Sequence record: OR532803.1
DNA: 64,000 bases
Strand: one strand, 5' to 3'
DNA from: Klebsiella phage RCIP0009
The translations under genes were made by a program, and so were the position numbers. The notes beneath the pieces are model-generated. The model did not search any database. It was not told the origin of the DNA and saw nothing but the letters and a program-made list of their open reading frames with translations. Shown piece by piece: positions 30,929-30,965 of the stretch; position 1 is the first letter of the stretch; each line of letters begins with the position of its first letter.

Positions 30929-30965
30929 AAAGCCCTTGACTTCGGTTGAGGGCTTTTGTTATATT
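30929..30965 (+). promoter_or_regulatory. PeSL-like module: UUCG-tetraloop terminator hairpin (GCCCUUGAC-UUCG-GUUGAGGGC) whose stem carries the -35 TTGACT of an early promoter (18-bp spacer, -10 TATATT)
   Basis: read directly; a near-identical 35-mer recurs at 61405-61441 (minus) and 48391-48426 (minus). Confidence 0.55.

Follow-up and report, generated by a model that had tools for sequence, protein, structure and literature searches.

The DNA analysed here, hereafter the window, is a 64,000-nucleotide stretch of Klebsiella phage RCIP0009 (OR532803.1) and corresponds to the first 64 kb of a KP27/KP15-type phage (Straboviridae, Slopekvirus). From the left it carries the terminase large subunit, head genes, uvsW and hoc. 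An early cluster on the plus strand lies at ~19.9-36.4 kb (srd, rnlB, NAMPT, dam, nrdC, gp49, nrdD ... nrdG, nrdH), the long tail-fibre genes occupy 36.4-46.3 kb and are followed by the holin gene, and a minus-strand early cluster spans 47-64 kb (ndd, rIIB, rIIA, gp52, gp39+60, dexA, dda). The two early clusters contain five copies of a composite element in which a GC-rich hairpin and a sigma-70-type promoter occupy the same DNA, an arrangement that resembles the promoter-early stem-loops (PeSLs) of phages RB49 and phi1. Over the 6 kb around the copy from which the analysis started (30929-30965), identity with the closest KP27/KP15-type Klebsiella phages is 97.6-99.3%, and phage pR7_1 matches the window from 46.9 to 64 kb at 99.8% identity. 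GC content is 0.38-0.43 across all early regions (at 2-kb resolution, a coarse test). Over the whole window none of the Rfam covariance models matched at its gathering score, and a tRNA scan found nothing.

Five composite elements and their anatomy

The five elements belong to two families. Family 1 consists of three near-identical copies of ~40 nt, one on the plus strand (30928-30965) and two on the minus strand (48391-48428 and 61404-61440), and the copies at 30929 and 61405 have an exact 40-nt run in common. The pattern AGCCCTTGACTTCGGTYRRGGGCTTTTG had exactly three matches, at 30931-30958 (+), 48398-48425 (-) and 61411-61438 (-), and none among 100 dinucleotide shuffles. This bears out a preliminary description of the same DNA, which had reported a repeat of ~35 nt at 30929, 61405 and 48391. 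Family 2 is a second hairpin type with two copies, at 54255-54291 (-) and 60654-60694 (-). A covariance model trained on 13 copies was searched against the window with filters off, and its strong forward matches were exactly these five elements. E-values ranged from 6e-15 to 1e-14 for family 1 and were 3e-5 (PeSL D) and 1e-4 (PeSL C) for family 2. Both members of the second family proposed earlier, at 54255 and 60654, are real. An independent hairpin scan (at least 8 bp, at least 4 GC pairs, a TTG within the hairpin, a spacer of 16-19 nt and then a -10-like box) recovered the five elements plus two candidates that were later rejected, compared with 0-2 hits in each of 20 shuffled windows. The third, looser copy once placed at 24619 had to be dropped. 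The hairpin is absent there (minimum free energy -4.4 kcal/mol, z +0.16), the covariance model is silent, and what is left is just a 9/12 promoter-like match, equally frequent in shuffles.

Each element fills the intergenic gap between two co-oriented early genes, with the hairpin beginning 3-9 nt past the upstream stop codon and the -10 lying 23-39 nt ahead of the ATG. In all five an A3-5 run precedes the stem. The GC hairpin is 10-14 bp long (12-16 bp with its A-U extension) and folds at -17 to -23 kcal/mol, with z from -3 to -5.6; the family 1 loop is cUUCGg. The 5' arm holds the -35 (TTGACT or TTGCAW), the 17-18 nt spacer is made up of the 3' arm and the T-tract, and a TGn-extended TATATT comes next. 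The boxes read TTGACT-18-TATATT in three copies, TTGCAA-17-TATATT in one and TTGCAT-17-TATCTT in one; the -35/-10 pairs score 9-10/12 in 5/5 elements, all with a TG-extended -10. The preliminary description had correctly recognized a UUCG-tetraloop terminator hairpin that carries a -35 TTGACT and is followed by a -10 TATATT, but it had put the -35 in the descending stem, where it does not lie. TTGACT occupies the 5' (ascending) arm and the first loop base.

Because the T-tract runs into the TGn-extended TATATT, the termination U-tract and the extended -10 are the same bases. The U-tract tails read UUUUGUUAUAUU or UUUUUGCUAUAUU. With a GC-rich hairpin directly followed by a U-tract, the element looks like an intrinsic (Rho-independent) terminator and is predicted to act as one. 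A terminator scan lists the copies at 30928, 61440, 60696 and 54287; the copy at 48428-48399 is unlisted, and its hairpin is seen by folding. In the 13 aligned copies 12/12 stem pairs are kept (100% of cells pair, vs. 25-61% in slid controls), and three pairs have changed on both sides (A-U/C-G to C-G/A-U; G-C to A-U). The -35 keeps the 5' arm constant, while variation in the 3' arm takes the form of G-U pairs and compensated changes.

In most copies the element is extended by a common leader, ATCGAAAC(GAAAC), which begins 4-8 nt past the -10, at the predicted +1, and is followed by the Shine-Dalgarno sequence (SD). Since the leader extends to the SD, the conserved module measures ~65-90 nt rather than 35. 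The leader, whose sites in the window are given in Table 1, is common to PeSLs, hairpin-less promoters, RB16-type phages and RB49 PeSLs, and TCGAAACGAAAC occurs five times in the genome where 0.02 occurrences are expected. A further motif, TAATAGCACTTTTTGYTAAA, which includes the stop codon of the upstream gene, stands ahead of four promoters per genome. In the window it is found at 60686-60705 (-) and 60332-60351 (-). The same junctions carry it in RB16, leE and Maroon, as does the 60332-60351 junction in Fraggle, and it could serve as an UP-like element or bind a factor.

Table 1. Elements and related modules of the window, with their parts, covariance model scores and folding values.
Feature	Extent	Strand	Setting	Parts	Covariance model	Hairpin (kcal/mol; z)
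PeSL A, family 1	30925..30994	+	between nrdD stop (30922-30924) and orf80 ATG (30992)	hairpin 30928-30957, cUUCGg loop; -35 TTGACT 30936-30941; 18-nt spacer; TGt-TATATT -10 at 30960-30965; leader ATCGAAAA 30972-30979; SD AGGAG	65.1 bits, E 6e-15	-18.3; -3.0
PeSL B, family 1	48349..48431	-	between orf75 stop (48432-48434) and orf265 ATG (48351)	hairpin 48428-48399; -35 48420-48415; -10 48396-48391; leader ATCGAAAC 48384-48377	64.2 bits	-22.8; -5.4
PeSL C, family 2	54222..54295	-	between gp52 topoisomerase stop (54296-54298) and orf184 (SprT-like) ATG (54224)	hairpin 54291-54265; -35 TTGCAA 54283-54278; 17-nt spacer; -10 TATATT 54260-54255	28.1 bits, E 1e-4	-17.1; -3.4
PeSL D, family 2	60614..60705	-	between stop of ORF 60704-61006 and orf87 ATG (60616)	upstream motif TAATAGCACTTTTTGTTAAA; hairpin 60694-60660; -35 TTGCAT 60682-60677; -10 TATCTT 60659-60654; leader ATCGAAACGAAAC from 60647 (leader site 60640-60647)	30.0 bits, E 3e-5	-20.5; -5.6
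PeSL E, family 1	61378..61443	-	between orf93 (LysM) stop (61444-61446) and orf49 ATG (61380)	hairpin 61440-61413; -35 61433-61428; -10 61409-61404	64.6 bits	-18.7; -3.8
Related module, another PeSL subclass (hairpin encloses -10)	60277..60351	-	upstream of orf74 ATG (60279)	AGCACTTTTTGTTAAA motif 60351-60336; arms GGGGTA 60328-60323 and TACCCC 60309-60304; -10 TATAGT 60315-60310; leader ATCGAAAC 60303-60296		-16.6; -2.4
Half PeSL (half copy 60020-60069), 3' arm absent	59993..60069	-	-35 overlaps orf74 stop; orf109 ATG 59995	A-run and 5' arm with -35 retained (AAAAGCCTTGCAT); -35 60062-60057; -10 TATAGT 60039-60034; leader ATCGAAACGAAAC from 60027 (leader site 60020-60027)		
Promoter module	32705..32767	+	right edge of variable nrdD-nrdG block; upstream of orf63 (32765-32956)	TTGACC 32710-32715; 17-nt spacer; TAACAT 32733-32738; then SD-sequestering hairpin		

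Distribution, relatives and neighbouring gene content

The remainder of the genome was reconstructed from the near-identical pR7_1. The motif search and alignment of copies that had been proposed as a check gave, in addition to the five window copies found by covariance model, nine more elsewhere, i.e., ~14-15 copies per genome (window plus the rest of pR7_1) vs. 0-2 per shuffled window. Six of the nine fall between gene 1 and gp25, in a large cluster made up of small unnamed genes. Another two are found directly past DNA ligase, where they flank its downstream gene, and one lies between regA and gp43. All copies are co-oriented with their genes and are found only in early or hyperplastic regions; the head, tail, baseplate and fibre modules hold none genome-wide (p ~0.002; 0.66^15 = 0.002).

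A 41-nt query matched 199 phage records in the GenBank phage collection, at 8-10 places in a typical Slopekvirus and at 3-4 places in RB16/RB43-type phages of E. coli, Enterobacter, Cronobacter and Citrobacter. Among the best places listed for the latter, identity is mostly 97.5-100% over 38-40 nt, and 92.5% in the RB43/Lw1/CfP1 type. The flanking genes share only 70-88% DNA identity across genera. A pattern scan of IMG/VR gave 13 loci only, mostly the same reference phages. Elements also occupy the orthologous junctions of five other phages (RB16, RB43, leE and Maroon, all Pseudotevenvirus, and Fraggle), namely those that follow nrdD, gp52, dexA/orf93, regA and ligase and those that precede orf265 and the orf87 position. 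An element stands at the PeSL B junction in RB16, RB43, Lw1, CfP1, leE and Fraggle, and PeSL C has an orthologous element in RB16, Fraggle and leE. At the junction before orf265 all genera carry the family 1 allele, with variation confined to the 3' arm via G-U pairs. Hairpin alleles do not track orthology at two other junctions. After nrdD and dexA/orf93 the window has the family 1 allele, and RB16, RB43 and Maroon have GCCCCTTGC-GAAA-GTGAGGGGC and (A/G)CCCTTGCA-TTCG-TGCARGGG(T/C) between orthologous flanks. Short-patch conversion between paralogous copies would be the most economical explanation of this allele shuffling.

The PeSLs of RB49 and phi1 are intergenic and combine a sigma-70-like promoter with a stem-loop in one of five possible positions, overlap with the -35 being one of them. 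An SD, an ATG and, on the upstream side, A/T-rich DNA complete the module. The modules are concentrated in hyperplastic regions and lie beside nrdD, hoc and the g43 locus, and promoter activity, terminator activity and mini-circle formation have been shown experimentally for the RB49 modules (PMC2839356). RB49 PeSLs and the window copies have -10-ACACCCATCGAAACGAGAT in common. The modules of the RB49 ORF190-199 cluster carry TATAATACACCCATCGAAACGAGAT and CATAATATCCCCATCGAAACGAGATAC, the window copy at 48391 reads TATATTAGCCATATCGAAACGAGATAC, and the run ATCGAAACGAGATAC is identical between this copy and the RB49 199/198 module. Judged by these shared strings, the -10 and leader part is homologous to that of RB49-type PeSLs. 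A link is also seen in a gene. The product of orf87, directly downstream of PeSL D, has 39% identity with RB49 ORF193c (E 9e-17 pairwise), and outside Slopekvirus homologues of orf87 are confined to Maroon and the RB49 group. The RB49 192/193 mini-circle carries two genes, one of them ORF193 (PMC2839356).

Gene content beside the elements was compared at the gene level for 59 curated early genes vs. RB16, Fraggle and leE. Genes without a counterpart in at least one of these phages include orf80 (after PeSL A), orf75 (before PeSL B), orf87 (after PeSL D) and orf93 (before PeSL E). The block 30992-32704 is wholly variable, bounded on the left by PeSL A and on the right by the promoter module at 32705-32764; the phages RB43, Maroon and GuL6 have orf80, and RB16, leE and Fraggle lack it. 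Maroon has the order PeSL - denV - promoter - orf87 where the window has PeSL - orf87. The homology between Maroon and the window breaks at 60653/60648, which is the -10/+1 of PeSL D, and the denV cassette is bounded by two promoter modules, a pattern that would be expected of recombination between two directly repeated modules. A first, liberal gene-level enrichment gave p = 0.005-0.009, which is too generous because RB16p019 is an orthologue of orf49, if a diverged one, and ORF 60704 may be diverged rather than absent in leE. With conservative scoring the test restricted to small genes gave p = 0.02. Genome-wide, 11/14 PeSL junctions are variable vs. RB16, compared with 73/192 other junctions (p = 0.004). 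This test used tblastn anchors on RB16 DNA, since automatic gene calling mis-called a few RB16 minus-strand genes. Each copy was said earlier to sit immediately upstream of a small ORFan or accessory gene, which is the case for 3/5 (orf80, orf87 and orf49). The genes that follow the remaining two, one of 265 aa (PeSL B) and a SprT-like one of 184 aa (PeSL C), are conserved between genera.

Related modules and neighbouring genes

Three further modules are listed in Table 1. The stem of the module at 60277..60351 covaries with GGGATA/TATCCC in leE and Fraggle. The half PeSL at 59993..60069 corresponds to the 'degraded (1/2) PeSL' class of PMC4122927. At the junction orthologous to 32705..32767, RB16, Fraggle and leE have a promoter and then a stem-loop.

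Three other sites were rejected as elements. The hairpin with promoter-like context at 26915-26937 (+) lies inside the orf100 frame, and its '-10' is unconserved in RB16, leE and Fraggle. The hairpin itself, which is GC-rich with a T-run (-17.5 kcal/mol) and lies ~50 nt past the NAMPT stop in orf100 (26856-27158), where it codes PLVARKGLF, is kept in the same three phages with a sole change that is synonymous and in the loop; it could be an intragenic terminator or attenuator. The 9-bp GC hairpin at 46524-46546 (-), in a promoter-like context antisense in the holin gene (46350-46997), was taken as chance or other. The site at 13056-13105 (-) (covariance model E 0.005) is a plain terminator after uvsW.1, without a -35 and without the leader.

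Among the genes adjacent to the elements, orf93 (61444-61725, -) encodes a LysM domain (Pfam E 2e-8) and orf184 (53670-54224, -) a SprT-like protein (Pfam E 8e-14). The six other element-flanking ORFs that were scanned had no Pfam match at E 0.001 or better. Further from the elements, the homing endonuclease genes at 32971-33624 (+) and 9805-10440 (+) are patchy among close relatives, and the MobC-like gene that precedes nrdG, found in KP27, Kiwi and Matisse, is missing from most others. In place of endonuclease VII (28322-28804, +), RB16 and leE have a larger ORF, annotated in RB16 as a homing endonuclease.

Within the genus, the only common polymorphism of the 17-kb minus-strand early region is a 76-aa ORF (KP27_295 / RB16p267) at 49097-49141, beside a plain hairpin rather than a PeSL; it is present in KP27, AYL and RB16 and absent from the window. 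RB16p007 is inserted at the plain hairpin 57532-57549. The distal tail-fibre/adhesin DNA at 43370-46270 (+) fails to align with Kiwi_ER50 and KP27. It is the most variable DNA of the window vs. those two close relatives, which were compared in full, and it has no PeSL. Position 1 of the window is exactly the ATG of the terminase large subunit (1-1830, +), and the record has therefore been re-oriented. Outside the window, the block gene 55 - nrdA/B - DNA ligase is on the strand opposite to the rIIA-gp43 block in this phage group. The strand switch (~82 kb in the genome; 31.1/31.4 kb in RB16) is not an assembly error, since RB16 has the same layout.

Interpretation and comparison with known systems

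We consider it likely that the elements are PeSL-type composite regulatory cassettes of a T4-like phage, each combining a terminator, an early promoter and a leader, with predicted roles in transcription and recombination. This reading draws on their anatomy, copy number and distribution, on the structural covariation and cross-genus conservation, on the homology with RB49 PeSLs and on the association with gene content. The view of the preliminary description, which saw PeSL-like cassettes of terminator and promoter, is upheld by the stable and covarying hairpin, the conserved promoter, the restriction to early regions and the RB49 homology. The A-run, GC hairpin and U-tract would terminate the transcript of the upstream early gene. 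The sigma-70 early promoter threaded through the same DNA would initiate the next one at the predicted +1, where the conserved leader (AUCGAAAC...) starts and, in most copies, leads into the Shine-Dalgarno sequence of the next gene. The result would be transcriptional insulation, in which upstream read-through is halted at the following unit's -10 and transcription of this unit starts anew from its own promoter. With an upstream stop and a promoter of their own, small early genes, singly or in short groups, would behave as autonomous cassettes. RNA polymerase can stay on DNA after termination and re-initiate nearby; if it does so here, a terminator nested in a promoter could, speculatively, recycle polymerase efficiently. 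The elements would give an early transcription unit map for a group of phages in wide therapeutic use against Klebsiella, indicating which small genes of no known function form independent early cassettes.

The evolutionary side of this reading is that near-identical modules of 40-80 nt in direct orientation would act as homology patches for phage recombination, allowing conversion from copy to copy as well as deletion, insertion or swap of genes between or beside modules. We infer this role from the allele shuffling, the denV case and the ORF193 link. If it is true, the modules would be natural places of gain and loss for accessory early genes, as well as insulated landing sites for engineering.

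Several observations weigh against the proposed reading. Within the genus the arrangement is static: 178 records match, 103 of them cover at least 80% of 46.9-64 kb, and the best 60 of the 178 cover all of it at 97.8-99.8% identity. Within-genus indels sit away from the elements, two indels lie at plain promoterless GNRA-type hairpins (49123-49138 and 57532-57549), and the remaining indels relative to KP27 and Kiwi involve homing endonucleases, the tail-fibre tip, ORF 31931-32443 and an additional ORF at 28806. The conservative gene-level test, with orf49 treated as a diverged orthologue and ORF 60704 counted as present, gave p = 0.08, and an event-level test gave p = 0.04-0.07, i.e., a modest enrichment that depends on scoring. 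Compared with other long spacers, of which 18/35 are variable, PeSL junctions differ at p = 0.075. Simple PeSL x PeSL excision does not account for most patchy ORFs, which are flanked by an element on a single side; for orf75 and orf93 it was rejected on this ground. At first orf49 was taken for swapped cargo, but it is a diverged orthologue. We found no map of transcription start sites or 3' ends for any Slopekvirus in the published literature. The expectation that the elements bracket the most variable segments held to a moderate degree between genera (11/14 vs. 73/192) but not within the genus, where the layout is static and the variable tail-fibre DNA has no element. The comparison of junctions with related genomes that had been suggested gave clear single cases between genera (orf80, orf75, orf93 and denV/orf87) and no association within the genus.

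A rival account is purely regulatory, in that ordinary early promoters overlap ordinary terminators, packed by genome compaction and with no special recombination role. Variable small genes would adjoin the elements since gained accessory genes need a promoter and intergenic gaps tolerate breakpoints. The conservation of element positions across genera, the static layout within the genus, the variability of other long spacers and the indels at plain hairpins all accord with such an account, which we hold to be a serious possibility, if on balance a doubtful one. It does not explain why paralogues have identical stems and loops, which function does not need because different hairpin alleles work at the same positions, nor the shuffling of alleles between orthologous junctions, nor the location of both denV indel ends in promoter modules. 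In addition, the homologous RB49 modules form mini-circles (PMC2839356). The association with gene-content differences is real, but promotion of exchange by PeSLs is not separated from the simpler case in which accessory cassettes begin at promoters. A more ambitious reading supposes integron-like exchange across at least three genera (Krischvirus, Pseudotevenvirus and Slopekvirus), with the leader or hairpin as a recognition signal for a phage factor, for RNA 5'-end handling or for recombination. The conservation of the +1 leader (AUCGAAAC(G)AAAC) in the three genera, the swapping of hairpin alleles between orthologous junctions and the presence of the cargo gene orf87 / RB49 ORF193 behind such modules in two distant genera would fit it, and we regard it as unlikely. 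A rival explanation that we think very unlikely is a dedicated, sequence-specific exchange system comparable to an integron, in which cassettes would be excised and inserted by a phage protein that recognizes the conserved leader or the GCCC...GGGC hairpin, a possibility raised by Arbiol et al. (PMC2839356). A hairpin core and leader kept in three genera and the allele shuffling between junctions would suit such a system. However, no recombinase or integrase is apparent adjacent to the elements, where the scanned neighbour genes have no assigned function or are LysM or SprT-like, the arrangement is static in >100 genomes, and an extra enzyme would be superfluous because T4-type recombination already acts on short homologies.

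Two further explanations were weighed. The elements could be plain, possibly bidirectional Rho-independent terminators whose resemblance to promoters is accidental. The symmetry of A-run, hairpin and T-run does produce weaker covariance model matches on the opposite strand, and a similar plain terminator follows uvsW.1 at 13056-13105. That terminator, however, has none of the features that all copies and orthologues of the elements keep, i.e., the TTG site in the 5' arm, the 17-18 nt spacing, the TGnTATATT and the leader, and the promoter features are kept also in the hairpin-less or half copies at 60039 and 60315, which makes an accidental resemblance highly improbable. The several near-identical copies and the homing endonuclease genes of the window (9805-10440 and 32971-33624) also bring to mind miniature mobile elements, or sequences that homing endonucleases target or leave as footprints. 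This explanation is barely credible, given that there are no terminal inverted repeats past the hairpin and no target-site duplications, that orientation is always that of transcription, that positions are conserved across genera, and that the endonuclease genes lie at least 2 kb from the copies, which stay in place whether these genes are present or absent.

The nearest known systems are the PeSLs of RB49 and phi1. Both sets are intergenic and join a sigma-70-type promoter to a GC stem-loop, and both include an SD, a start codon and A/T-rich DNA on the upstream side. Each is present in many copies restricted to hyperplastic early regions, with sites next to nrdD and within the regA-gp43 region; the architecture with the -10 inside the hairpin is also seen in the window, at 60304-60328. 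The dominant window form differs in that the hairpin encloses the -35 and is followed by a real U-tract, so that it looks like a canonical, potentially bidirectional terminator, whereas the RB49 modules that were compared have G4/C4 stems between -35 and -10 or around the -10, with a weak U-tract. The window -10 is TATATT with TGn rather than TATAAT. The PeSL concept was later extended to T4/PST and KVP40/nt-1 (PMC4122927), and the present elements extend it, with sequence-level homology, to Slopekvirus and Pseudotevenvirus. The PeSLs and PmSLs of T4/PST and KVP40/nt-1 are like the window elements in having a lineage-specific consensus of stem and promoter and in occurring as intact and 'half' copies near indels, as with the half copy at 60020-60069. 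Their stems read A3-4G3...C3T3-4 (nt-1) and AGNA...TCNT (PST), and their promoters are TTTACW or TTGYVH (PMC4122927); no Mot-box variants were found in the present phage.

Lambdoid morons are comparable as small accessory genes with their own promoter and terminator. In contrast to the window elements, moron signals do not form a conserved family of repeats and are not considered to mediate mobility, and the window genes are co-oriented with their neighbours and have no GC anomaly at 2-kb resolution. In closer relatives, the GenBank records of KP15 and KP27 contain overlapping 'terminator' and 'promoter' features with the same sequences at the same junctions, including PeSL A in KP27. These were predicted separately, with ARNold and MEME/MAST (Maciejewska et al. 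2016, PMC5219037), and the paper mentions neither stem-loops nor PeSLs, nor does it treat the features as a single composite repeated module or connect them with gene shuffling. The kind of element is one already described, and its recognition in this lineage brings together what had been annotated piecemeal. New here, and useful as leads, are the +1 leader across three genera, the TAATAGCACTTTTTGYTAAA upstream motif, the allele shuffling between orthologous junctions and the link between orf87 and ORF193.

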